This document shows, in pieces, positions 23,913 through 36,756 of a DNA stretch of 64,000 nucleotides. The notes under the pieces were generated by a model. That model searched no databases. It had not been told where the DNA came from and was given only the letters and a program-made list of their open reading frames with translations. The translations under genes were made by a program, and so were the position numbers. Position 1 is the first letter of the stretch. The number at the start of each line of letters is the position of its first letter. The DNA is from Bacillota bacterium (lineage in GTDB: Bacteria > Bacillota > Clostridia > Lachnospirales > Lachnospiraceae): positions 55,399-119,398 of the forward strand of contig JAEXAX010000034.1 in NCBI GenBank assembly GCA_023458035.1. The letters run 5' to 3'.

Positions 23913-24146
23913 CATGACAGATGTGGCGATACAGAACACAGGGGGCGACAGCAGAATAATAAAGGATTTTATGTGAGCGTCTTACTTTCATTGAAAAGCT
24001 GGGAGAAAGCTTCAACATCAGAGAAATTGCCTTTGATAGATGGGGAGCAGTTCAGATGATGCAGAACTTAGAGAATATGGGTTTTACCGTAGTTCCTTTT
24101 GGACAAGGCTTTAAAGCTATGAGCCCATCAACGAAAAAACTGATTT
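23913..24146 (+). repeat. Degenerate copy of a GNAT-gene fragment fused to a phage terminase-large-subunit fragment. It forms a direct repeat with 27375-27446 plus 28068-28227.
   Basis: By eye the two copies are near-identical in nucleotide sequence (catgacagatgtggcgatacagaacacagggg...atgtgagcgtcttact, then ttcattgaaaagc...gcctttgatagatggggagca...ggacaaggctttaa). Confidence 0.65.
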
Positions 24147-24377
24147 GATAGTCACAGCAGGTGTAAGTTCATAGATAACAATAGTGGCCATTTGCTCCGG
24201 TTATGGCCTTTTTGACTTGTGAAAAATCAAAGAATATATTATTTTTATTGTAACGAAAGGGCTGAAAAAATAAAAAATGCGAAACGCAGAAAAAATGTCG
24301 CGTTTACCATTGACAAATACGTTTTAGGAAGATAACTCCCGGTTTGTATGGATATGTAAATTGGAATTATAATAGGA

Positions 24378-25073
24378 GTGTTGCAAGTGAGAGATAAAAG
24401 CAATAAAAAATTTTGGAATAAATTTGCCAAGCTGTATGCTCCTTTTATGAAGAAGGATAAAGGAGTTTATGAGAAAGTTTGCAGATATATTTGTCCTTAT
24501 TTGAATAAAAATATGAATGTACTAGAACTTGCTTGTGGTTCAGGGCAACTGTCGTTTAGTCTTTCAAAGCATACTAAAAGTTGGATTGGAACAGATTTTT
24601 CCGAACAAATGTTTTTCCTTTTTCCCAGCTGACAATAGTCACATTGTTGGATTGGAACAGATTTTTCCGAACAAATGATTCTGGAAGCAAGGAAGCGTGG
24701 AGAATATGAAAACCTTATATTTGAAATAGCCGATGCAACATCATTATCTTTTGCAGATGGAAAATTTGATTGTGTGGTAATTGCTAATGCGCTTCATATT
24801 ATGCCTAAACCATATAAGGCAATGAAAGAAATATATAGAGTATTAAAATCCGATGGTATTTTGGTTGCTCCTACTTTTCTCTGGAAAGAGGGAAGGAGAA
24901 GAAAAATTATAAAAAAGATGATGTCCATTTTGGGATTTAGGATGTATCACGAATGGGATAAAAAGCAATTTGAAGATTTTATTGAGGAATATGGATTTTC
25001 AGTAGTTGACATGAAATTGGTACATGGGGGGCTTGCACCGGTTGGTGTGATGATTGCCAAAAGAGTAGCATAA
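24378..25073 (+). pseudogene. Class I SAM-dependent methyltransferase interrupted by a 66-bp in-frame insertion/duplication that carries a stop
   Basis: ORFs 24378..24632 and 24675..25073 are in the same frame. Motif VLELACGSGQ (SAM motif I). A 31-nt sequence is duplicated at 24581-24611 and 24647-24677 with 35 nt of filler containing TGA. Confidence 0.75.
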
Positions 25074-25292
25074 CAGATTTTATTCTTGTGAATAAAAATT
25101 TCATACAAATGGTTATCAAAGGCGATAGAGAAAAACGATCGTCTTTTTGCAAATTATATAGAGAAATTGCAACAAGAAAACAGAGGACGAACACCACAGG
25201 TAAAGAAGAACGAGTTAGACCTATAAAACTATTTGAAAAATGATATAATAAAATAATAAATAAGTATTTGATTTTTGGAGGTGCTTAAATTT

Positions 25293-25712
25293 ATGAATGA
25301 AAGAGAGAAAATCGTTCGTTTATGGTTTGATATGTGGCTTGCACAACAAGATTTAGGAATTGATGATATTTTTTCGGATGATGTAATTTATATTGAGAGT
25401 TGGTGTCCTAAGTATGAAAATCGTAAAATAGTAAAGCACTGGTTTAATGAATGGAATACAAGAGGAAAAGTTCTTGCGTGGGATATAAAGCAATTTTTTC
25501 ATAAGGATAATCAAACTATTGTAGAATGGCACTTCAAAAATAAAATGAATGAGGGGAAAGTTGAAGAATTTGACGGTATTTCTTTGATTGTTTGGACAGC
25601 TGATAATAAGATAAAGGCATTAAAAGAGTTTGGCTGTAATTGTAATCACTACAATCCTTACAAAGAGAGTGAAACTCCCTTATTTAGAGAAGAAAAAGTA
25701 AATTGGTTTTGA
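25293..25712 (+). CDS. SnoaL/NTF2-like small protein
   Basis: ~140 aa with a Trp/acidic-rich pattern (LWFDMW...VIYIESW) typical of the SnoaL-like fold. RBS GGAGG lies before the ATG at 25293. Confidence 0.55.
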   Translation: MNEREKIVRLWFDMWLAQQDLGIDDIFSDDVIYIESWCPKYENRKIVKHWFNEWNTRGKVLAWDIKQFFHKDNQTIVEWHFKNKMNEGKVEEFDGISLIVWTADNKIKALKEFGCNCNHYNPYKESETPLFREEKVNWF

Positions 25713-25722
25713 GGTAATTACT

Positions 25723-26091
25723 ATGGATATAAATAGATTTTTCAAAACGGTTTTATCACAAAATGCAGAAGAACTTAGGAAATTTTTTCAAAAGAATGCC
25801 GTTATAAAATGGCATTGCACAAATGAGTTATTTACCTTGGATGAGTATATAAGGGCAAATTGTGAATATCCGGGGAATTGGAACGGAGAAATAGAGAGAA
25901 TTGAAGAAAATATAGATACTGTTATTTTAGCTTGTCGAGTTTTTCCGACAGATAATAGTGAATCTTTTCACGTAGTAAGTTTTATTCATTTTGAGGATAA
26001 TTTGATTATTGAAATGGATGAATATTGGTCTGATGATGGATTGGCACCGGAGTGGCGTAAGAAAATGAAAATCGGAAAACGCATTAGGTAA
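25723..26091 (+). CDS. NTF2-like small protein (second paralogue-like gene)
   Basis: 122-aa ORF with size and composition similar to the preceding gene. Confidence 0.45.
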   Translation: MDINRFFKTVLSQNAEELRKFFQKNAVIKWHCTNELFTLDEYIRANCEYPGNWNGEIERIEENIDTVILACRVFPTDNSESFHVVSFIHFEDNLIIEMDEYWSDDGLAPEWRKKMKIGKRIR

Positions 26092-26114
26092 ATAATAATT
26101 TGAATGGAAATAAT

Positions 26115-26330
26115 ATGGATGATATAACAAAAAAATTAAACATGAGGAGCAGAGAAGAAGTGGTTATGTTCTTAAAAAGTATGTGGTCAGATGCTCCGAA
26201 GCCTTGCCCTTTATGTGGTGGAAAGTTAGATTATTTTCATAAGAAAGCTAAAAGGAGTAATTCGGATTGGATTTGTATAGATTGTAAAACTCATTTTGAC
26301 GCAATAAAAATCTTAAAAGAGCTTGATTGA
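26115..26330 (+). CDS. Small zinc-ribbon protein, unknown function
   Basis: CPLCGG...CIDCK double CxxC motif. No clear RBS, so the start is uncertain. Confidence 0.35.
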   Translation: MDDITKKLNMRSREEVVMFLKSMWSDAPKPCPLCGGKLDYFHKKAKRSNSDWICIDCKTHFDAIKILKELD

Positions 26331-26476
26331 AATAATCAATTTTATATTACAAACGCTACAAAAAATCCCGACGGCACAGGGCAGCCGGGAGCGGATATGA
26401 AAGTTTTACTTTTACAGATAGGGCATAACAGCCATTCCGTTAGTATCCATCTTCACCACGTCCTTTTAATCATAAT

Positions 26477-26615
26477 CAGCGTATCTTAACCAAGCTATTG
26501 TTAATCAATCCTAAAGTACTTATCCCCAATAAACTGATTACGCCCCCTAAATTGAATATCACTTTTCCTGTAATACCACTTGCAAGTGCAGGAACAGACC
26601 ACGGAATATATTCAT
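26477..26615 (-). pseudogene. 3'-terminal fragment of a membrane (permease-like) gene
   Basis: The minus-strand frame reads ...YEYIPWSVPALASGITGKVIFNLGGVISLLGISTLGLINNSLVKIR*, with no upstream continuation. Confidence 0.25.
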
Positions 26616-26619
26616 AAAG

Positions 26620-26757
26620 GAATTAGAAAAGCAAGAGCTTATAACAGAGTTTGATAAAAATGTATGGCTTAGCATGGTAGACTACCTTACAGTTCATCGT
26701 GATGGAAAGATTGAATTTACATTTTTTGATGGCAGCCAGGTAAAATTAAATAGATAG
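26620..26757 (+). pseudogene. C-terminal tail fragment of a large serine recombinase
   Basis: Reads ELEKQELITEFDKNVWLSMVDYLTVHRDGKIEFTFFDGSQVKLNR*. This is the characteristic extreme C-terminus of Tn4451/TndX-type large serine recombinases. There is no upstream catalytic part. Confidence 0.5.
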
Positions 26758-26836
26758 AAAACCAAACAGGCACTTCACTCAAATTTGAGATAAACTAATT
26801 ATAAATATATTTTCTATAGTAAAAACGTATTTAATG

Positions 26837-26972
26837 TGCTATAATCAAAGCAATCAAAATATATTAGTGAGGATAAAAAGTGGCTAATGGCACTTGGTAC
26901 TTGACGATTTGGAATATATAATTTGATCATAAGATTAGGTCAGGAAGCATACGATGCCCTGGCCATTTTTTT
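26837..26972 (+). other. Orphan cassette: extended -10 promoter, 13-codon mini-ORF, intrinsic terminator (candidate small RNA/peptide)
   Basis: TGcTATAAT at 26837-26845. GAGGA followed by GTG at 26880, encoding MANGTWYLTIWNI* (to 26921). Hairpin GGTCAGG/CCTGGCC at 26938-26964 followed by T7. Confidence 0.35.
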
Positions 26973-27080
26973 GTGGAGAGCAACAATGAAAGAATATAGC
27001 ACTCCAAGCCGATCGCCAAGGTATCAAATTGATATTTTGGGAAAACTAAAAAACATTGGATTATAAACGGAGAAAAGTAT

Positions 27081-27593
27081 ATGAGTGATAAAATGGATGT
27101 TTCATCATTATCAGATCGATACCTTGTTCAAATGATGGGGGAGTCTGATGTTGAGAGAATATATGAATTGTGTCGAAAAAATGCCCTATACTATCAATAT
27201 TGCCCTCCGTATGTATCTGAAGAGAGTATTATTTGCGATATGAATGCACTGACGCCGAACAAAGACATGCGGGACAAATATTATATTGGATATTACGATG
27301 AGGAAAGATTGATTGCAGTAATGGATTTAATCATGAATTTCCCGGATGAAGCAACGGCCTTTATAGGGTTCTTTATGACAGATGTGGCGATACAGAACAC
27401 AGGGGTCGGCAGCGGAATAATAGAGGATTTATGTGAGCGTCTTACTAAGATAGGAATTTCCAAGGTACGTCTTGGATGGGTAAAAGATAACCCTCAGGCA
27501 GAGCACTTCTGGCATAAGAATAAATTTGCAGAAACAGGGGATTTTTGTGATACAGATAAATATACAGTAATTGTTGCTCAAAGATATTTGTAA
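27081..27593 (+). CDS. GNAT family N-acetyltransferase
   Basis: 170 aa with the acetyl-CoA-binding motif VAIQNTGVGSGII. Confidence 0.8.
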   Translation: MSDKMDVSSLSDRYLVQMMGESDVERIYELCRKNALYYQYCPPYVSEESIICDMNALTPNKDMRDKYYIGYYDEERLIAVMDLIMNFPDEATAFIGFFMTDVAIQNTGVGSGIIEDLCERLTKIGISKVRLGWVKDNPQAEHFWHKNKFAETGDFCDTDKYTVIVAQRYL

Positions 27594-27618
27594 ATCAGAT
27601 TTTCTGGAGGTGCGAGGT

Positions 27619-27838
27619 ATGGCTTCAAGTAAACAATATTTAGATTTCATTTTAGGACAACTATCCCAAGTTGGAAGAAATAACATATAGATCAATGATG
27701 GGCGAATATATTGTTTATTATCATGGGAAAATTATTGGTGGAATTTATGATGATAGGTTTTTAGTTAAGTCTGTTAAATCTGCAATAGCATATATGTCAA
27801 ACAAAATCCGAGTGAGGAGAATTCCTTTAGATAATTAA
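27619..27838 (+). pseudogene. TfoX N-terminal-domain gene, frameshifted
   Basis: MASSKQYLDFILGQLSQ... stops after 23 codons. The family sequence continues in another frame (MMGEYIVYYHGKIIGGIYDDRFLVKS...). Confidence 0.55.
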
Positions 27839-27849
27839 AACTTAATCAG

Positions 27850-28355
27850 TGGGTAGAACAAGCAATCCGTTGGATGCCAATGGAGAAATGAGATGCTTGC
27901 TCATTTGCAGTAAATGAAGATGAACTTGAAGGAAGAGTCTGTTATGGAGGACTTAACCTATCATCCACAACAGAATCACCGCCTTTGTTTTAGTCTTTCT
28001 ATGGCAAAGGCAAGGCTTTATTCAAACCACTGAAGGGAATGTGGTTCACTATGGATATATAGAAACTTTCATTGAAAAGCCAGGAGAAAGATTCAACATC
28101 AGAGAAATTGCCTTTGATAGATGGGGAGCAGCTCAGATGGTGCAGAACTTAGAGAATATGGGCTTTATCGGAGTTCCTTTTGGACAAGGCTTTAAGGATA
28201 TGAGACCACCAACGAAAGAACTGATGAAACTAATTCTGGAGCAAAAATTAGCACATGGTGGAAATCCAGTACTTCACTGGATGATGGATAACATCTTTAT
28301 AAGGATGGATCCTGCCGGAAATATCAAAGCAGATAAGGAAAAATCAACAGGGTAG
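27850..28355 (+). pseudogene. Phage terminase large subunit, C-terminal remnants (multiple frame breaks)
   Basis: Fragments ...VCYGGLNLSSTTE... and ORF 28041..28355 with IAFDRWGAAQMVQNLENMGF...HGGNPVLHWMMDN, typical of the Terminase_1 C-terminal nuclease domain. The N-terminal ATPase part is absent. Confidence 0.6.
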
Positions 28356-28482
28356 TGTCAAGATTCTTTCGCAAATTCATTTCTTGGCCGCCGGCATACT
28401 TTTGAGCCATACGGGACGGGGCATGATTCCGAAGCATAATGGTTGTGGCAGCGTAAAGGTTTGTTAAGAGCAAGTATCGACC

Positions 28483-28830
28483 ATGGTTGAAAGTATTCGC
28501 TCAATAGAATACAATAAAGGAGATCTTCTAATGTGTGAAGGTGGAGCGTATTTTGGAAGAACAGCGATTTGGAATTTTAATTATGATATTTGCTTTCAAA
28601 ATCATGTGCATAGGGTACGGCCATATTTAAATGTTGATTTAATGTATTTTTACTATGTTTTCTATTTTTATCAAAATACGGGTATGATACAATCAAAAGG
28701 AATAGCTATGCCTAGATTATCTTCTATATTGCATGAAATGGTAATTCCATTGCCAACACTAGAAGAACGGCATCGTATAGTCGCCAAAATAGAAGAGATG
28801 ATTCCATATTGCGATAAATTGATAAAGTGA
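28483..28830 (+). pseudogene. Type I restriction-modification specificity subunit (HsdS), C-terminal fragment only
   Basis: Target-recognition-domain/conserved-helix pattern (GDLLMCEGGAYFGRTAIW...FQNHVHRVRP...LPTLEERHRIVAKIEEMIPYCDKL). No hsdM or hsdR nearby. Confidence 0.6.
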
Positions 28831-28859
28831 CCAATAAAGCTATAGGAGACTATAAATAA

Positions 28860-29570
28860 ATGGAGACATTTAATGATTTTTTGTCTACAGCGCGCACTGA
28901 TCGTTTTAGACAATTAAATGTATATAAAGATAAGGATTATCTAGTAGATGATAAATATCGCATGACTGAAAATGTTACGATGTCATATTATGGTGAATAT
29001 GGATGTCAAGTATCATTGAGGGATTTCTATTTTTATATTACTGAAAGCAAAGGAAATGCATACTATTCTGTAATAGAATTATATCAGCTGTTAGATCGGA
29101 TTGTTCAAAAAGAGGGATATGATTTCGTGATAAACCTCTTACGAGAAATTGAAAAAGCAGGAGTAGCAAGAAAGCACGAAGATTATATTATATATAGAGG
29201 AATTCGATATAGTGTTAGAACTCATGTTGAACCTATTGTTGATGGTGAAATAGAAATACTTGATGGCTCGATATCATTAAATTATAAGAAGCTTACAGGA
29301 TTATTGATTTTAATACAAGAAAAAAGCAACTATTTTTGGAATAGTAAAAAAGCAAACAAGAAATATAAAGATGGGCTGTTAAGATTATTTATAGCGCTTA
29401 TCACCTTACATCAGGATCATCCAGTATTAGAGAACAAGGGATGGAAATATTCTATTGAAGAGGATAAGTTTAAGTACGTCGGTAAATTTTCATCTGATGA
29501 AAAAAAAGCCAAGCGAGTTTATTATTTGACGAAAGGAGAACTTGATGATATTATGTCATCAGAATCCTAG
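28860..29570 (+). CDS. Hypothetical protein (236 aa), no recognisable domain; directly upstream of the reverse-transcriptase locus
   Basis: Intact AT-rich ORF with RBS AGGAGA. Its last ~45 nt contain the predicted ncRNA promoter and the a1 repeat. Confidence 0.55.
   Translation: METFNDFLSTARTDRFRQLNVYKDKDYLVDDKYRMTENVTMSYYGEYGCQVSLRDFYFYITESKGNAYYSVIELYQLLDRIVQKEGYDFVINLLREIEKAGVARKHEDYIIYRGIRYSVRTHVEPIVDGEIEILDGSISLNYKKLTGLLILIQEKSNYFWNSKKANKKYKDGLLRLFIALITLHQDHPVLENKGWKYSIEEDKFKYVGKFSSDEKKAKRVYYLTKGELDDIMSSES
29526..29554 (+). promoter_or_regulatory. Sigma-70-type promoter predicted to drive the ncRNA and RT transcript
   Basis: TTGACG (29526-29531), 17-nt spacer, TATTAT (29549-29554). The predicted +1 at about 29561 coincides with the first base of the a1 repeat. 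Confidence 0.45.
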
Positions 29571-29717
29571 TATTCGTCGATGACGAAGTGATGATAAGGA
29601 GTTTTAATCGAGTGTCGGATAAGTCAAGTGTTTGATCCGTTCGCTTTTCCCGCTCGCGGCGTATGCTCGCGGGGCTCACTCTTCAACCCCTTGCCTCATT
29701 CTACACTGTAGGATTCT
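29561..29717 (+). ncRNA. Candidate retron msr-msd non-coding RNA
   Basis: 9-bp inverted repeat AGAATCCTA (29561-29569) / TAGGATTCT (29709-29717). A G at 29570 follows a1 directly (candidate branching G). Hairpin TTCGTC-gat-GACGAA at 29573-29587. A ~60-nt core (29636-29695) is about 65% G+C in an otherwise AT-rich island. T-tract at 29717-29722. The RT ATG is at 29728. Confidence 0.45.
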
Positions 29718-29727
29718 TTTTTATACC

Positions 29728-31704
29728 ATGAAAAAATATAGATTACTTAATAAGATAACAATTAAACGACCGATAGTTTTTTTGTGTGGACCATATTATA
29801 GGAAATCAGACGATGACCGACGAAAAATCTTAAAAGATTATCTAATAAATACAGAGAAAGATACAAAGAAACGATGCTTGCCGTTGATTATTGATGATTT
29901 TATGTCAGAAGACAAAATTCAAGATTCGACGATTAACGTTCAACTTATGGAAGAGATATTTGCTGCAGTTTCATATCGAACATATATCTTTCTTGATACT
30001 ATTTCGACAGCTGCCGAGTTGGGTATTTTTGCTAACAGCGCATACAGTAATTCCTTAAAAATTTATCTGCCCAAATATGATGATATTTATAATAAAAGTA
30101 ATGTTGGGTATTTCGTACGTAGTGGAGTGCTAAGGGAAGATTCATCACTAATAGATGTTCTTGAATATCGACCAAAGATACAGAGAAAAGCAATTGCTAC
30201 TGATTATATAGTTGAATACTATGGCTTTGTAAATGATGAATTACCTGAAAACATAAAAATTGATATTGATGATGATAAAGGGATAGGAAGCCAATCTTAT
30301 TCTATTGATATTAAAAATCTGAATTCTAGACCTACAACTTTTAATCAGATTTGCTATTTTGATGATGGCTCCTCATTAAATATAAAAACTTCGTTAAAGC
30401 TTTTGTTTTATACGACGTTGGCAATTGTTTATCCTGAATATCATGATTTTTTTGTGAGGAAGGATAACGACTTTTCAAAGATTGATATATCAATTGTTAC
30501 TAAGAAGGTTAAGGAAGCATATGTCAGTCTTATAGCAACAAACCATATTATTGGTGCATATAAAGATACTGATATAAAAATAGAAACAGCATTAAATGTT
30601 GAGCATAATGAAGAATTAATTAGGCATATTGTTAAGTTTCTTCATTTATTTAATACAGAGTCAGATTACACGAATACATATCTATTTACTAATCCAGAAG
30701 GTATGTTAATAGAAACTCTTGATGATAAAAAGTTTTTACACGATATTATTTCATTTTCAGGAGAACAAATAAATCTTTTGAATTCAATAATAACTGAGCC
30801 TGGGAAGTATTATGAAAAGATTATAGTAACCAAGGGCAAGAAAAAACGTGAAATAGTTAAATATAAAGAAACTCGAGATGGTGAAGATGCTAGAAGGTTT
30901 CACGAGTACATTGTAGATACGCTTTCTCAGAAATATATGCCCCATAATGCTTCATATGCGTATCATAAGAATGTGGGGATTAAAAATTGTGTGTTGGCAC
31001 ATATTTCTAGCAATAGTTTTATTAAATTCGATATAAGAAAATTTTTTAACAGCATTACAATTAAGGTTGCAGAAAATGCGTTAATGAGGGAGTTTAATAT
31101 AACAGAAAAAAATAGCAAATTAGTAAAGACAATATTGTCAATGTGCTTCTTTGAGAATAAAATGCCACTTGGTTTAGTTGGGTCTCCACTAATTTCAGAT
31201 ATCGTGATGAAATCATTCGATGAAAATATAGCTTTTTTTGCTCATGAAAACAATTTGCTGTATACTCGCTACGCGGACGATATGATGTTTTCTTCTTCTC
31301 AAGACATTTCAGATGAAATTTATTTGGCAGTTGGATCTATTGTTAAGGCGGAACTACAAGAACTTGGTCTTAAGCTCAATGAGGATAAAACACAGGTTGT
31401 TTCTTTTGATGATAAGCATTCTTTTGTAAAATATATAGGTGTTGCTATTGTAAAGGGTTCCAAGGGGAATTTTCTTTCTGTTGGAAAGGAATATATTTTT
31501 GAGACAGCCAAAGAATATCTTGAGTATCAGAGAAAATATTCTGAATCAGAATTGGACTCAGAAGATAAATTTTATGCGCAGAAGAGATTGATAGGCAGAA
31601 TTGGGTATATCAAACATATAGAAGGTAATCGTGGAATAAACAGATTAAAACAACGGTTGTCTAAATATGTTGATCTGCAAGCTAACCCGGATTTAGTGAT
31701 ATAG
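29728..31704 (+). CDS. Retron-type reverse transcriptase with an N-terminal nucleoside 2-deoxyribosyltransferase-like (NDT-like) domain and an uncharacterised middle region (658 aa)
   Basis: RT motifs: YYEKIIVTKGKKKREI, FIKFDIRKFFNSI (nt 31027-31047), LGLVGSPLISDIV, RYADDMMFS (YADD at nt 31270-31281), LKLNEDKTQVV. The C-terminal GRIGYIKHIEG...L..LSKY resembles retron RT tails. N-terminus: IVFLCGPYY ... IFLDTISTAAELGIFA, an NDT-like G-rich start plus a D...T..ELG motif. Confidence 0.8.
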   Translation: MKKYRLLNKITIKRPIVFLCGPYYRKSDDDRRKILKDYLINTEKDTKKRCLPLIIDDFMSEDKIQDSTINVQLMEEIFAAVSYRTYIFLDTISTAAELGIFANSAYSNSLKIYLPKYDDIYNKSNVGYFVRSGVLREDSSLIDVLEYRPKIQRKAIATDYIVEYYGFVNDELPENIKIDIDDDKGIGSQSYSIDIKNLNSRPTTFNQICYFDDGSSLNIKTSLKLLFYTTLAIVYPEYHDFFVRKDNDFSKIDISIVTKKVKEAYVSLIATNHIIGAYKDTDIKIETALNVEHNEELIRHIVKFLHLFNTESDYTNTYLFTNPEGMLIETLDDKKFLHDIISFSGEQINLLNSIITEPGKYYEKIIVTKGKKKREIVKYKETRDGEDARRFHEYIVDTLSQKYMPHNASYAYHKNVGIKNCVLAHISSNSFIKFDIRKFFNSITIKVAENALMREFNITEKNSKLVKTILSMCFFENKMPLGLVGSPLISDIVMKSFDENIAFFAHENNLLYTRYADDMMFSSSQDISDEIYLAVGSIVKAELQELGLKLNEDKTQVVSFDDKHSFVKYIGVAIVKGSKGNFLSVGKEYIFETAKEYLEYQRKYSESELDSEDKFYAQKRLIGRIGYIKHIEGNRGINRLKQRLSKYVDLQANPDLVI

Positions 31705-31908
31705 TCTGATAATTGAATGTTCACATTCTATGGCGTTGTCAAGATTTTGTGCACTGGTAATGTTTGGCTGATGTTTGGTCGTTTGATTGAAAACTTTGAA
31801 TTTGTAGAAGTAACACTTCTGGTCCCGGGGACCAAAAGTAAAAAGTAAAAATCCAGCAAACCAAGTAAAATCAATGGTTTGAGACGATTTGAAAGGAAAA
31901 GAAATTTT

Positions 31909-32385
31909 ATGCTAAACAAGATAAAAGTCCTCATGGTTTGCCACGGCAATATCTGCCGCTCAGTGGCCGCACAGTATATTTTCACAGACATGATCAGAAA
32001 AGCCGGACGTCAGGCCGAGTTTCTGATCGAATCAGCGGCCACCACCCGTGAGGAAATCGGTGCGCCGATCTATCCACTCATGCGGGCGACCCTGGAAAGA
32101 CACGGGGTGCCGATCGGCGATCACCGGGCTGTTCAGGTAACCAAAACAGATTATCAGAACTATGATCTGATTATCGGTATGGATCGGGAGAACCGTTGTG
32201 ACCTGAACCGCATTCTGGGTGCGGATCCGGATGGTAAGATCCAAAACCTGCTGGCTTATGCCGGCCGAGGGGAGGACGAGGTGTTTGATCCCTGGTATAG
32301 TCGGGATTTTGAGCAGGCCTATCGGGATATTAAAGAAGGCTGTGAAGGCCTGCTGAAAGCTATTGACGAAGGCCTGTCCGCCTGA
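31909..32385 (+). CDS. Low-molecular-weight protein-tyrosine phosphatase
   Basis: Active-site loop VCHGNICRS (CX5R-S) near the N-terminus. DP motif (VFDPWY). First high-GC gene after the island. Confidence 0.85.
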   Translation: MLNKIKVLMVCHGNICRSVAAQYIFTDMIRKAGRQAEFLIESAATTREEIGAPIYPLMRATLERHGVPIGDHRAVQVTKTDYQNYDLIIGMDRENRCDLNRILGADPDGKIQNLLAYAGRGEDEVFDPWYSRDFEQAYRDIKEGCEGLLKAIDEGLSA

Positions 32386-32506
32386 CTATAATTTTATTAA
32401 GCCGGATTCCCAAAAAGTCATTGCCAGTAGATATATAATTATATTATAATATCATAATATAATGACGAAATATTTTTTATGTCATATATTTAAGGAGGAA
32501 ATGACG

Positions 32507-32827
32507 ATGGGTTTATTTGAATTTTTTATGGGCGCAGCGGATATCAATGCCGGTGTAGAGGAGTTCAAGCGGACACAGGACGCCGTTTTGCTGGACGTCA
32601 GAACGGCAGAGGAGTACCGGGGCGGCCATGTGCCGCAGAGTGTGAATATTCCGCTGCAGAACCTGCAAATGGTAACAAGCAAGGTCAGAAACAAGCAGAC
32701 CCCGCTGTATATCTATTGCCATAGTGGCAGTCGCAGCTCGCAGGCCTGCGCCGGCTTAAAGCGCCTGGGTTATACAAACGTACATAATATTGGTGGAATC
32801 ATGAATTACCGTGGAGCGGTCGAGTAA
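32507..32827 (+). CDS. Rhodanese-domain sulfurtransferase
   Basis: LLDVRTAEEYRGGHVPQSVNIP and active-site loop YCHSGSRS. Confidence 0.8.
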   Translation: MGLFEFFMGAADINAGVEEFKRTQDAVLLDVRTAEEYRGGHVPQSVNIPLQNLQMVTSKVRNKQTPLYIYCHSGSRSSQACAGLKRLGYTNVHNIGGIMNYRGAVE

Positions 32828-32886
32828 GTAGCACGAACAGCATAACAGCCGCACGCCCCTTCATGTAACACCGGAAAGAGGTGACT

Positions 32887-34563
32887 ATGTTTACACAGAA
32901 TATTGCATGGATCGGCAGTACAGCAGAGGGAAAACGTGTTTCGATTTTACCGAGAATGGCGAACCGCCATGGCTTGATCGCCGGCGCCACCGGTACCGGT
33001 AAGACCATTACTTTAAAGGTGCTGGCTGAGGCGTTCAGTGATATGGGAGTGCCGGTGTTTCTGGCGGATGTCAAGGGAGATGTTTCCGGTCTGATGCAGC
33101 CGGGTGAGGACAGTCCGAAGCTGCAGGAACGTATCAGCCGTTTCGGTCTGGCGGAAGCCGGTTTTGCCTACCGCGGTTATCCGGTGACAGTGTGGGATAT
33201 CTACGGGCAGAACGGTGTGCCGCTCAGAACCACCATTTCGGAGATGGGGCCTTTATTACTGGCGCGCATTCTGCAATTAAATGATCTCCAAAGCGATATC
33301 CTCGGCATCGTTTTTAAGATCGCCGATGATGAAGGTTTATTGCTGTTGGATACCAAGGATCTGAAGGCCATGCTGAACTGGGTGGATGAGCATCAGAAGG
33401 AGCTGGCGCCGACCTATGGCAAGATGTCGACAGCCTCATTGGGCTCTATCACAAGAGCGGTGGTAGCGTTGGAAATGCTCGGCGGAGATATCTTCTTCGG
33501 TGAACCCGCCCTGAACATTCGTGACTGGTTTACCACTTCTACGGATGGTCGAGGCATGATGCAATTATTAAATTCCGAGAGTCTGATCAATAATCCGGCT
33601 CTTTATGCTACCTTCTTATTATGGCTGATGTCGGAATTATTTGAAACCCTGCCGGAGGTCGGAGATATGGAGAAGCCGAAGATGGTCTTTTTCTTTGACG
33701 AAGCCCACTTGCTTTTCGCCAATGCGCCGAAGCCGTTGTTGGATAAGATAGAGCAGGTGGTGAAGCTGATTCGCTCTAAGGGTGTGGGCATCTATTTCTG
33801 TACACAGAATCCGCGTGATATTCCGGATGGTGTGCTGGCTCAGCTGGGCAATCGGATCGAGCATGCCCTGCGGGCCTATACACCGGCTGATCAGAAGGCG
33901 GTACGGGCGGCGGCTGATTCCTTTAGAGTCAATCCGGCCTTTGATACCTATGAGACCATCATGGCCCTCGGAACCGGTGAGGCGGTCGTTTCCTTTTTGC
34001 AGGAAGACGGTACGCCGGGCATGGCCGAGAAGGTGGCGATCTTACCGCCGCAGAGTGCCATGAAGGCAGCCGATCCGGCATTGCGCACGCAGGCCGTTCA
34101 GGGAACGCTGGCATATACCAGATATGCGACCGCTGTCGATTCGGATTCGGCTTATGAGATATTACAGCGTCTGGGAATAGAGGAAGAGGCTGCCGCCGAG
34201 CAGCAGCGTCAGGCCGAAGCTCAACAGAAAGAACAGGCAAAGGCAGAGGCATTACAGGCCAAGCAGGCGGAAAAGTATGCAGTACTGCAGGCCAAGCTGC
34301 AGGCTCAGCAGGAGGCCGCACAGCAAAAGCTGCTGCTAAAGCAACAGGAAATGGCTGCCAAGCAGGCGGAAAAAGAAGCTGCCGCCGCTGCCCGGGTTCG
34401 TGAGCGGGCGGTGAAGTCGGTCGGCAACAGTGTGGTCGGCACCGTCGGTCGTGAGATGGGCAAGCAGTTGGGTAAGGGCTTTGGTTCCTTTGGCAAGACC
34501 CTGGGTGGAAATGTCGGCGCCAGCCTTGGCCGCGGCTTATTCAGCACCCTGTTTAAACGATGA
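32887..34563 (+). CDS. HerA/DUF853-family P-loop ATPase with a Gln/Ala/Glu/Lys-rich C-terminal tail
   Basis: Walker A GATGTGKT and Walker B-like VFFFDEAH. C-terminal low-complexity coiled-coil-like region. Confidence 0.7.
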   Translation: MFTQNIAWIGSTAEGKRVSILPRMANRHGLIAGATGTGKTITLKVLAEAFSDMGVPVFLADVKGDVSGLMQPGEDSPKLQERISRFGLAEAGFAYRGYPVTVWDIYGQNGVPLRTTISEMGPLLLARILQLNDLQSDILGIVFKIADDEGLLLLDTKDLKAMLNWVDEHQKELAPTYGKMSTASLGSITRAVVALEMLGGDIFFGEPALNIRDWFTTSTDGRGMMQLLNSESLINNPALYATFLLWLMSELFETLPEVGDMEKPKMVFFFDEAHLLFANAPKPLLDKIEQVVKLIRSKGVGIYFCTQNPRDIPDGVLAQLGNRIEHALRAYTPADQKAVRAAADSFRVNPAFDTYETIMALGTGEAVVSFLQEDGTPGMAEKVAILPPQSAMKAADPALRTQAVQGTLAYTRYATAVDSDSAYEILQRLGIEEEAAAEQQRQAEAQQKEQAKAEALQAKQAEKYAVLQAKLQAQQEAAQQKLLLKQQEMAAKQAEKEAAAAARVRERAVKSVGNSVVGTVGREMGKQLGKGFGSFGKTLGGNVGASLGRGLFSTLFKR

Positions 34564-35360
34564 GCCGGCAGCAGTTGTCCGTGATCTGGCTGAGTACGTT
34601 GCCGGTGCCGGCCGCCCTGACCGAAGAAGCGGAGCTGTCAGTGACAGCGGCCGCTGCGGTTCGATTGGTCGGACGGGACTTTGACAGTCCGGTCGTGGTC
34701 GTGACAGATCGTCAGGCGATGGTGGCAGAGGCATGTGCGGCCGGTCTGCCTTGTATTGGCATAGAAAGGGGAGTAGAGAGGTTATCTGCTCCCTATATTT
34801 ATGAGTCGGAAACGGATATCGATCGTGAGGCGATCGAGCGGGCATACAGGCGCTTTCATCAGCTGCCGCTGACCATCGCCAAAACAAAACGTCTGACCAT
34901 TCGCGAGCTTTCCGAAGCGGACTTTGAGTTTGTGCTGACCTTAGCGGACAGTGATCCGGCGGCTGCCGATGAGCGATTGACCGGGGAAAAGCTAAGCAGT
35001 CAGATCAGGGTAGCCTATCCATTCTACGGCTTTGGTATTTGGCTGATCGAGTCGGCCCCGGGGCAGAGGGACGATAAGCTTCGGCCGATCGGAATCTTAA
35101 GCTTTTCGCCGGATGCTATGCCGGCCATTGGCTATCAGCTGCTCCCCGAGGAGCGCGGACAGGGACTGGCTGCCGAGGCGGCGGCGGCCGGCCTGGCCTA
35201 TATGCGGGAGCTCGGCTATGAGGCATTCGTCTGTCGTATCGCAGCCGATAACAAGGCTTCGCAGCGGGTAGCCGAAAAGCTTGGCTTTGTTCGTTGCGCG
35301 GACGGTAATTGGAACTGGACAAGCAAATCTCAGTCCATCTATAATAAAGGCGATACATGA
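34560..35360 (+). CDS. Protein with a C-terminal GNAT (RimJ/RimL-like) acetyltransferase domain
   Basis: TKRLTIRELSEADFEF... and QGLAAEAAAAGLAYM motifs. The N-terminal ~110 aa are unassigned. Confidence 0.55.
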   Translation: MSRQQLSVIWLSTLPVPAALTEEAELSVTAAAAVRLVGRDFDSPVVVVTDRQAMVAEACAAGLPCIGIERGVERLSAPYIYESETDIDREAIERAYRRFHQLPLTIAKTKRLTIRELSEADFEFVLTLADSDPAAADERLTGEKLSSQIRVAYPFYGFGIWLIESAPGQRDDKLRPIGILSFSPDAMPAIGYQLLPEERGQGLAAEAAAAGLAYMRELGYEAFVCRIAADNKASQRVAEKLGFVRCADGNWNWTSKSQSIYNKGDT

Positions 35361-35391
35361 TTGACGACCTGTACAAGAATCAGGAGGAAAG

Positions 35392-36756
35392 ATGGAATTT
35401 CGATTAGAGCATGACACCATGGGCGAGATAGCGGTTCCGGCCGAACGGGCCTGGGGAGCCCAGACACAGCGCAGCCTGCAGAACTTTGCCATTGGCAATG
35501 AGCTGATGCCGACAGAGATCATTCGGGCCTTTGCGGTTTTAAAATCAGCGGCTGCCGCCACCAACGGAGTTCTTGGTAAGCTGGCGGCTGACAAACAGTC
35601 AGCCATAGAAACGGCCTGTCGTGAAGTGTTGGACGGCCTGCATGCGGCAGAGTTTCCGCTGAAGGTTTGGCAGACAGGCAGCGGCACGCAGAGCAATATG
35701 AATGTCAATGAGGTCATTGCCCATCTGGGGAACCGGGCGAATCCGCGGTTACGCCTGCATCCGAACGATGACGTCAATATGTCGCAGAGCTCAAATGACA
35801 CCTTTCCGACTGCTATGCATATCGCCGCGGTGACGGCGATCCATGAGCGGCTGCTGCCTGCCCTGGATCGGCTCCGAGACACCCTGACGCGTCTGGAAGC
35901 GGAGAATGCGAAGATCATTAAAATCGGACGAACACATCTGCAGGATGCGGTACCGCTTCGTTTTTCTCAGGAAATCAGCGGCTGGCGCGGTATGATGGAG
36001 GCGAGTCGAAGGATGCTTATGGAGGCCATAAAAGAATTAACCGAGCTGGCCATTGGTGGAACGGCGGTCGGTACCGGGCTGAACTGTCCGGTCGGGTTTG
36101 ATGATCGCTGTGCTGAGGAGATCTCGGCTCTGACCGGCCTGAACTTTACGGCTTCAAAAAATAAGTTTCATGCGCTGACCGCCAAAGATGGTTATGTTTT
36201 TGTACACGGAGCCCTAAAGGCTCTGGCCGCTAATCTGATGAAGATCGCCAATGACATTCGCTGGCTGGCCAGCGGTCCGCGCTGCGGCATCGGCGAAATC
36301 AGCATTCCGGAAAATGAGCCGGGCAGTTCGATCATGCCGGGTAAGGTGAATCCGACCCAGTGCGAGGCTATTACCATGATTGCCGTGCAGGTGATGGGCA
36401 ATGACGCCGCCATTGGCATCGGTGCATCGCAGGGAAATTTTGAATTGAATGTTTTCATGCCGGTGCTGGCCTATAACATGCTGCAGTCGATTCGCCTGTT
36501 GGCCGACGGGATGAATTCCTTTGACGAGCATTGCCTGAGCGGCCTGAAAGCCGAGCCGCAGCGGATGCGCGAAAACCTCGATCGGTCGTTGATGCTGGTA
36601 ACCTGCCTGGCGCCGCAGATCGGCTACGAGAAGGCGGCTGCAGCCGCCAAGAAGGCTTTTGCCGAGGGAACGACCCTAAAAGAGGCTGTGGTGGCATTGG
36701 GATACCTGGATGAAGCTGCTTATGATGCACAGGTAAAACCTGAGCGGATGGTTTAG
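35392..36756 (+). CDS. fumC: Class II fumarate hydratase
   Basis: GSSIMPGKVNP signature and TGSGTQSNMN. 454 aa. Confidence 0.9.
   Translation: MEFRLEHDTMGEIAVPAERAWGAQTQRSLQNFAIGNELMPTEIIRAFAVLKSAAAATNGVLGKLAADKQSAIETACREVLDGLHAAEFPLKVWQTGSGTQSNMNVNEVIAHLGNRANPRLRLHPNDDVNMSQSSNDTFPTAMHIAAVTAIHERLLPALDRLRDTLTRLEAENAKIIKIGRTHLQDAVPLRFSQEISGWRGMMEASRRMLMEAIKELTELAIGGTAVGTGLNCPVGFDDRCAEEISALTGLNFTASKNKFHALTAKDGYVFVHGALKALAANLMKIANDIRWLASGPRCGIGEISIPENEPGSSIMPGKVNPTQCEAITMIAVQVMGNDAAIGIGASQGNFELNVFMPVLAYNMLQSIRLLADGMNSFDEHCLSGLKAEPQRMRENLDRSLMLVTCLAPQIGYEKAAAAAKKAFAEGTTLKEAVVALGYLDEAAYDAQVKPERMV

Follow-up and report, generated by a model that had tools for sequence, protein, structure and literature searches.

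A predicted msr-msd RNA and its fused effector–reverse transcriptase in a retron lineage of gut Clostridia

Downstream of an open reading frame (ORF) of 236 codons, hereafter ORF236, a stretch of Lachnospiraceae DNA carries a gene whose product ends in a reverse transcriptase (RT), and the locus raises the question of what the sequence between the two genes encodes. The DNA analysed, called the window throughout, comprises 64,000 nucleotides (nt) of contig JAEXAX010000034.1 (assembly GCA_023458035.1, positions 55,399 to 119,398); coordinates count from its first letter, and all features of the element and of its two flanking genes lie on the + strand. A preliminary description, made from the letters alone, had read this 157-nt interval as a retron-like msr-msd non-coding RNA (ncRNA) with its own promoter. 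Judging from the sequence and its conservation in homologous loci, we consider it very probable that 29561–29717, or a segment reaching to about 29723, is the msr-msd ncRNA, the template, of a retron, retrons being bacterial RT systems directed against phages. The lineage to which it belongs appears to be a variant of the type II-A-like retrons, distinguished by a fusion of effector and RT and by an extra gene.

The RNA between ORF236 and the reverse transcriptase gene

Our comparison covers 37 distinct loci whose downstream proteins are 24–77% identical. They were gathered by exact-protein look-up, a genome scan and a metagenome scan, the last with the N-terminal domain as its sole query; a scan of genome contigs using the pattern YTRYADD returned mostly generic retron RTs. 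Full-length homologues of about 655 amino acids (aa) number more than 130 and come mostly from Lachnospiraceae and other Clostridia of gut metagenomes. The gap between the ORF236 and RT genes is 132–188 nt across loci, and the genes surrounding the pair are unrelated from one locus to the next. When the window is set beside its four closest relatives, the segment from arm to arm of the repeat described below is 88–93% identical, whereas the flanking ORF236 and RT genes are 69–80% identical at the DNA level; by this comparison the non-coding region is under selection.

The element is bounded by a terminal inverted repeat, in which the 5' arm, AGAATCCTA (29561–29569), is the exact complement of the 3' arm, TAGGATTCT (29709–29717), with which it is predicted to pair. 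The preliminary description had placed these exact reverse complements correctly but had put the probability of their arising by chance at 0.1–0.2, which is too high. Among 20,000 dinucleotide-preserving shuffles of 29555–29727, 0.4% contained a mismatch-free 9-bp inverted repeat whose arms were separated by 100 nt or more, and 0.1% one that bracketed the region. All 37 loci have a terminal inverted repeat of 9–12 bp with a G directly after the 5' arm. In the window this is G29570, the candidate branching (priming) guanosine already singled out by the preliminary description; its equivalent is invariant in all aligned ncRNAs and also in the distant loci L140, L075, L011 and L012. In the classical nomenclature the arm beside the branching G is 'a2' and the 3' arm is 'a1', the opposite of the labels first applied here.

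The arms differ between clades yet stay complementary. The pair AGAAUCCUA/UAGGAUUCU is replaced by AAGAAAUCCUA/UAGGAUUUCUU in other clades, the distant L140 carries AGGAAUCUA|G ... UAGAUUCCU, the equally complementary arms of the distant L075 are GGGAUUCUA|G ... UAGAAUCCC, and L011 and L012 likewise have different, complementary arms and then the G. Across 35 aligned sequences, 99.7% of the cells in the terminal stem are paired, with two covarying pairs; covariation of the arms in homologous loci, which had been proposed as a check, is therefore present. Conservation extends to the far end of the element as well. G29708, immediately 5' of the 3' arm, occupies an invariant column (G152 in the window row) and is, by analogy with known retrons, predicted to be the first template base. 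After the 3' arm comes a conserved T-tract (29718–29723; T162–T164 invariant, T165–T166 nearly invariant), which may be a terminator-like U-tract or, in clades with an A-rich 5' flank, an extension of the pairing between the arms. The ATG of the RT gene follows at 29728, 10 nt past the 3' arm and on the same strand. Both the T-tract and this ATG stand where they had first been described, and the layout is alike in all homologous loci. Taken over the family, the (A)AGAA(A)UCCUA arm, the G that follows it, G29708, the 3' arm and the T-tract are either invariant or compensated.

Shortly after G29570 stands a hairpin of 6 bp with a 3-nt loop (TTCGTC-GAT-GACGAA, 29573–29587), also part of the initial prediction. 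It is paired in all aligned sequences (100% of cells in 35 sequences), and one of its pairs changes from C-G to U-A in seven of them, a compensatory replacement. It would be the one msr hairpin of the window ncRNA, one to three being usual for a retron. A second small msr hairpin was considered around AUAAGGAGUUUU, a block at 29594–29605 between the msr hairpin and the long hairpin whose sequence is conserved across clades, and was rejected: only 48% of cells are paired in helix 3, and helix 4 is without covariation.

The preliminary description had found only short 5-bp stems in the remainder and no long msd hairpin, and here it was mistaken. A long msd-type hairpin spans 29611–29707, with its 5' arm at 29611–29635, an apical part at 29636–29682 and its 3' arm at 29683–29707; 20 of the 25 stem positions pair in the window. 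It had been missed because the window copy is unusually mismatched, the weakest in the family. The GC-rich core at 29636–29695, correctly described as having 39/60 G+C and GCTCGCGG twice (29652–29659 and 29665–29672), is the apical part of this hairpin and not its stem. From the fold and the invariant columns, the core can be resolved into a GC-rich tip (29649–29673) with the stem CCCGC/GCGGG (29649–29653 / 29669–29673), in which C29651, G29652, G29659, C29660, T29662 and GCTC at 29665–29668 are invariant in a 29-sequence alignment. These bases (CG...GC.T..GCTC) are kept even between clades whose stem sequences around them are unrelated, and the tip could be a protein-recognition site on the RNA or on the multicopy single-stranded DNA (msDNA) copied from it. 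A fragment of a foreign gene or mobile element, named earlier as another possible source of the GC-rich patch, was rejected: the patch is conserved in place in all homologues, as the tip of their long hairpin. The reverse complement of 29606–29708 folds as a DNA hairpin (−16.6 kcal/mol, z −2.4).

Folded independently of one another, the homologues give the same architecture. In the minimum-free-energy (MFE) folds, 36 of the 37 loci close with a stem of 8 bp or more, 36 place a 5–9 bp hairpin directly behind the G, and 33 form a long hairpin of 18 pairs or more; the z-scores lie mostly between −3 and −10. In these folds the long hairpins of the relatives hold 18–39 long-range pairs, where 10–50 bp would be expected of a retron, and are built from unrelated sequences. 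A covariance model matches the window once only, at 29557–29724 (151 bits), and matches all family loci at 104–167 bits. In the 35 sequences realigned to it, 90.6% of cells pair, compared with 40–52% when the partners are slid by 1–3 columns, and 25 of the 46 model pairs change on both sides (18 of 20 in the long stem). RNAalifold, given a plain MAFFT alignment in which the long stem was misaligned, consequently missed that stem and found just the terminal stem and the msr hairpin; the covariance model, the realignment and the independent folds mended this loss. Folding and covariation in homologues, the route by which the initial prediction was to be checked, thus bear it out.

Transcription would start from a sigma-70-type promoter (29526–29554) inside the 3' end of ORF236, where the preliminary description had placed it. 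It consists of a −35 box TTGACG (29526–29531) and, after 17 nt, a −10 box TATTAT (29549–29554) that counts as extended because TGn precedes it (29546–29548); the predicted start is at about 29561. This is the best promoter-like site in 28700–31900 (10/12 matches). The region is AT-rich, and 15 promoter-like sites were found in it where 18 would be expected. Since a single match is not above chance, the weight of the promoter rests on its conservation across homologous loci: TTGAC[AG], exactly 17 nt and TAnnnT recur in this order in 35 of the 37, the spacer and the encoded amino acids vary, and the −10 box ends 10–13 nt ahead of TCCTAG. The invariant ORF236 residues YYLT are encoded by TAT TAT TTG ACG, so that, with TTGACG as the −35 box, protein and promoter constraints overlap. 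Further along, the TAG stop of ORF236 overlaps the 5' arm, and its last base is G29570. Because TAG serves as the ORF236 stop only in some clades, the conservation of TAG and its G goes beyond coding constraint.

The effector–reverse transcriptase fusion, ORF236 and known retrons

The gene downstream of the RNA (29728–31704) encodes 658 aa, in which profile matches delimit an NDT-like domain (aa 9–107, nt 29752–30048), a middle region (aa 108–344) and an RT (aa 345–645, nt 30760–31662). The RT part matches RVT_1 (6.5e-22, aa 406–574), and its YADD catalytic motif, of the YxDD form, is invariant in the family (R514–D518). In PADLOC the best 25 of 46 matches are all retron RT models, with RT_II-A at the top (1.3e-38); the alignment of PDLC02940, the PADLOC RT_II-A profile extended at its N-terminus, is confined to the RT part. 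The best NCBIfam model of the RT is retron_St85_RT (2.9e-40). Run against PDB sequences, the family profile finds retron RTs first (Kva2, Ec78, Ec83 and Ec86, E 1e-25 to 1e-18), with group II intron and DRT RTs at 1e-13 or weaker. An AlphaFold2 (AF2) model of the fusion, with a predicted local distance difference test (pLDDT) score of 88.6, has only retron RTs among its top 18 Foldseek matches, at target-normalised template-modelling (TM) scores of 0.72–0.77; as only RT matches were returned, the search is mute on the N-terminal fold. Both sequence and structure place the RT nearer to the retron enzymes than to prokaryotic RTs of other classes.

The putative effector part is recognised at aa 9–107 by the PADLOC model NDT_II-A (2.8e-8) and by the NCBIfam model STM3845_fam, 'retron St85 family effector protein' (3e-10). 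Both effector models are matched by 21 of 22 family members, and Pfam STM3845 (PF28093, precomputed) matches the relatives P0059 and L140. Conserved residues of the NDT-like domain include D56, E75/E76, D90 and E97. For aa 108–344 we found no family or PDB sequence match and no detectable winged helix, and a profile of the N-terminal 345 aa gave no meaningful match to PDB sequences, that of the Ec86 effector included. We read the 658-aa protein as an effector–RT fusion on the strength of the NDT-like match at aa 9–107 combined with the C-terminal retron RT.

ORF236 itself (28860–29570, 236 aa) is the second conserved partner of the RNA, upstream of which it lies in homologous loci. A homologue of about 230–240 aa is found directly upstream in every locus that has an RT identity of at least 35% and an intact upstream sequence. 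Neither Pfam, PADLOC nor NCBIfam holds a family for it, longer relatives are also without a Pfam match, and Foldseek searches of its AF2 model (pLDDT 90.5) against PDB and BFVD gave no fold match at E<0.1. On this modelling ORF236 is confidently predicted to have a new fold, which, together with its strict linkage to the retron lineage, makes it a candidate new retron component. Among 1.84 billion proteins, its family counts only 96 representatives at 50% identity. One longer version was examined (P0200, about 350 aa, from L140); its gene, too, precedes a fused STM3845-RVT gene, and the locus has a matching ncRNA.

Effector and RT are not fused in every relative. In L011 (2074–5068) and L012 (2046–4960), which match St85-type retrons in gene order, a 229-aa ORF is followed by an ncRNA of about 220 nt, in which the G precedes two additional hairpins, then by an effector gene of 363 aa and finally by an RT gene of its own, encoding 322 aa in L011 and 304 aa in L012. 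Because such unfused relatives exist, the fusion looks derived within a Firmicute type II-A-like lineage. Compared with ORF236 by hhalign, the 229-aa upstream ORFs reach probabilities of 29% and 0.2%, and on this evidence they would be related to it at best remotely. L075 (1667–1832) is also listed among the unfused relatives.

How does this arrangement compare with retrons already described? Mestre et al. divide retrons into 13 types, of which type II has an NDT-like effector with a C-terminal DNA-binding domain, encoded by a separate gene (PMC7736814). The window locus shares with Retron-Sen2 (St85), of type II-A1, the order of ncRNA, NDT-like effector and RT and an ncRNA with terminal repeats, G, msr hairpin and long msd hairpin; the St85 models are also the best for both its RT and its N-terminal domain. 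It differs from Retron-Sen2 in that effector and RT form one polypeptide scoring below curated cut-offs, in that aa 108–344 lack a detectable winged helix or other match, and in having an extra upstream gene, ORF236, that contains the ncRNA promoter. The hosts differ too, being Proteobacteria for Retron-Sen2 and Clostridia, chiefly Lachnospiraceae, for the window lineage. The separate effector gene of type II-A is seen here only in the distant L011 and L012. Type II-A2 (Mestre et al. 2020) does have part of the effector fused to the RT N-terminus, but only the DNA-binding half, with the NDT separate, whereas the window protein has its NDT-like domain at the N-terminus. Retron-Eco1 (Ec86), of type II-A3, is alike in combining a retron RT with an NDT-like effector, and its RT structure (7v9x_A) matches at a target-normalised TM score of 0.72; its effector is a separate gene to which the N-terminal 345 aa of the window protein have no sequence match. 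In the clades of Mestre et al., the Ec86 RT belongs to clade 9 and the St85 RT, whose NCBIfam model matches the window RT best, to clade 1.

Fusions of a whole effector domain to the RT, with the ncRNA directly upstream, occur in Retron-Eco2 (Ec67, type I-C) and in types VII-A1, XI and XII. All of these place the added domain (Toprim, DUF3800, protease or TIR) at the RT C-terminus (PMC7736814, Table 1), unlike the N-terminal NDT-like domain of the window protein. A full N-terminal NDT–RT fusion with a conserved upstream gene is found neither in the 13-type scheme nor in the later retron literature searched, though it may be described elsewhere.

Competing readings and a possible mechanism

Several observations weigh against the reading of the element as the msr-msd RNA of a retron, some concerning the RNA and others the protein. 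A scan of 28800–30200 against Rfam 15, at E up to 10, gave only noise and no relevant family. The alignment behind the pair counts was fitted to the covariance model, and the independent folds are for this reason the fairer evidence; the two agree. In the window clade (the window and L083–L086), no Shine-Dalgarno sequence lies between the 3' arm and the RT ATG (29718–29730); more distant clades have GGAG 6–10 nt before the RT start.

The window ncRNA is also the weakest folder of its family (z −1.41). In its MFE fold (−44.9 kcal/mol) the 3' arm of the long stem pairs instead with 29588–29601, and the family fold, at −44.0 kcal/mol, is 0.9 worse and has an ensemble probability of about 4%. The long stem has five mismatches in its 25 positions, compared with two in L084, where 23 of 25 positions pair, 17 of them consecutively, and all differences between the two copies fall in the 5' arm. 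The sequence GUGAUGAUAAGGAG (29588–29601) is similar to the long stem's 5' arm and able to take its place in pairing with the 3' arm (29690–29706), which may represent an alternative conformer or only stem decay. Together with the position of the locus in a low-GC island beside gene remnants (TerL nuclease and HsdS fragments), this poor folding would suit a decaying, non-functional copy of a real retron family, one that no longer makes msDNA or defends. We consider such decay unlikely, as ORF236 and the gene for the 658-aa fusion are intact, full length and in possession of all family-invariant residues, the promoter, arms, G, msr hairpin and apical motif are likewise intact, and an identical protein sequence is present on four contigs. 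Imperfect msDNA stems occur in working retrons.

On the protein side, the RT departs from retron signatures. In the NAXXH region the window has CVLAH where Ec83 has NAKIH, with the H kept and the N and A replaced, and in place of the VTG triplet of Ec83 it has YIG, with only the G kept; C421, H425 and G571 are invariant in the family. The H of NAXXH and the G of VTG are the most conserved signature residues according to Mestre et al. (PMC7736814). Both curated St85 models (NCBIfam NF038233 / NF038232) score below their cut-offs, at 138.4 bits against 235 for the RT and 40 bits against 100 for the effector, and weak similarity to the Drt2 and Drt3a RTs is detectable. These features leave some room for an RNA that serves the RT as template or scaffold and is not a classical msr-msd, with unbranched priming from a protein or a 3' end as in DRT2/DRT9 and with a terminal stem and G that are only structural. 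This seems to us quite improbable. Retron RTs lie far closer than DRT enzymes in sequence (E of about 1e-25 versus 1e-9 to 1e-10) and in structure (TM 0.72–0.77 versus about 0.4), the effector domain is of the type II-A retron kind, and the RNA has every part of the retron layout: a terminal repeat with an invariant G at its foot, an msr hairpin and a long hairpin.

That the interval is an ordinary intergenic control element, combining an ORF236 terminator or attenuator with a leader of the RT messenger RNA and involving no reverse transcription, can be all but set aside: although the conserved T-tract after the 3' arm resembles that of an intrinsic terminator and the RT start codon lies only 10 nt beyond this arm, a leader needs no invariant G at the foot of its stem, no covarying hairpin of 25–35 bp and no conserved apical motif, a simple terminator scan of the + strand found nothing here, and the conserved promoter fires into the element, which makes it more than the end of the ORF236 transcript.

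Returning to the retron reading, a working scheme can be drawn from the general retron mechanism and the description of type II (PMC7736814) and from the toxin/antitoxin logic of Retron-Sen2 (Bobonis et al., bioRxiv 10.1101/2020.06.22.160168); it is by analogy with these systems that we infer branch priming, the msDNA boundaries, the toxin/antitoxin logic and a role in defence. Transcription of the ncRNA would begin near 29561, driven by the conserved promoter within the last part of ORF236, and pairing of the two ends (29561–29569 with 29709–29717) would bring G29570 to the base of the stem. The hairpin at 29573–29587 would be recognised by the RT domain of the fusion protein encoded downstream; this RT would then prime from the 2'-OH of G29570 and copy from G29708 back through the long hairpin, stopping near 29600–29612. 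The product would be a branched msDNA of about 95–105 nt, a long imperfect DNA hairpin with the conserved GC-rich tip. As in type II-A (Retron-Sen2/St85), the complex of RT and msDNA would restrain the NDT-like toxin domain, which here belongs to the same chain as the RT, and interference by a phage with the msDNA would release the toxin domain and lead to abortive infection. ORF236 would be an obligatory partner of the retron.

We suggest, tentatively, that this is an unclassified retron type, in which an NDT-like toxin and an RT antitoxin scaffold share one chain regulated in cis by its own msDNA. ORF236 would then be an obligatory fourth component, perhaps as a sensor or regulator recognising the invariant GC-rich tip of the msDNA hairpin, and its gene would be interlocked with the ncRNA by containing the promoter and by supplying the branching G from its stop codon. 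With the present analysis, a retron lineage of gut Clostridia gains an ncRNA model that is well supported and a complete list of its components. With toxin and antitoxin in one chain, the N-terminal fusion directs attention to how msDNA might gate a domain in cis, and a compact ncRNA with a single promoter and a hypervariable stem, from Gram-positive anaerobes, could seed retron editing tools in Bacillota.

Genomic setting and annotation

In the window, the retron lies at the edge of a low-GC island. The GC fraction is 0.29–0.37 over 24000–31800 and 0.48–0.60 over 31800–36000, with the rise directly after the RT gene. Upstream of the retron, short ORFs at 28041–28355 and 28483–28830 look like gene remnants; their only matches are to the C-terminal portion of the nuclease domain of a terminase large subunit (TerL) and to a portion of HsdS, a type I restriction specificity subunit. 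Elsewhere the neighbours differ, and those of several loci are members of defence systems. In L087, Thoeris genes (ThsB TIR and ThsA Macro, 114–2336) lie directly upstream of the ORF236 homologue and an ISL3 transposase gene lies downstream of the RT, surroundings that are a defence-island context; in L084 a Schlafen/AlbA-type gene follows the retron. A role in defence fits these neighbours in other loci and the low-GC island around the window copy. Searched at the DNA and the protein level, phage and plasmid collections contained no match, and thus no sign there of a phage- or plasmid-borne element.

The RT reading frame is open upstream into the ncRNA in the window (29632–29727), in L083 (3001–3066) and in L091 (2501–2629), and gene callers have lengthened some homologues by 20–43 aa (P0002 to 678 aa, P0062 to 700 aa). 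Such lengthened calls are probably annotation artefacts that mask the ncRNA, and the ncRNA model would correct records in which the RT ORF is extended in this way. In L118 (2492–3526), the N-terminal part of the RT gene has three in-frame stops and the ncRNA folds well; by its sequence this RT gene may be a pseudogenised copy.

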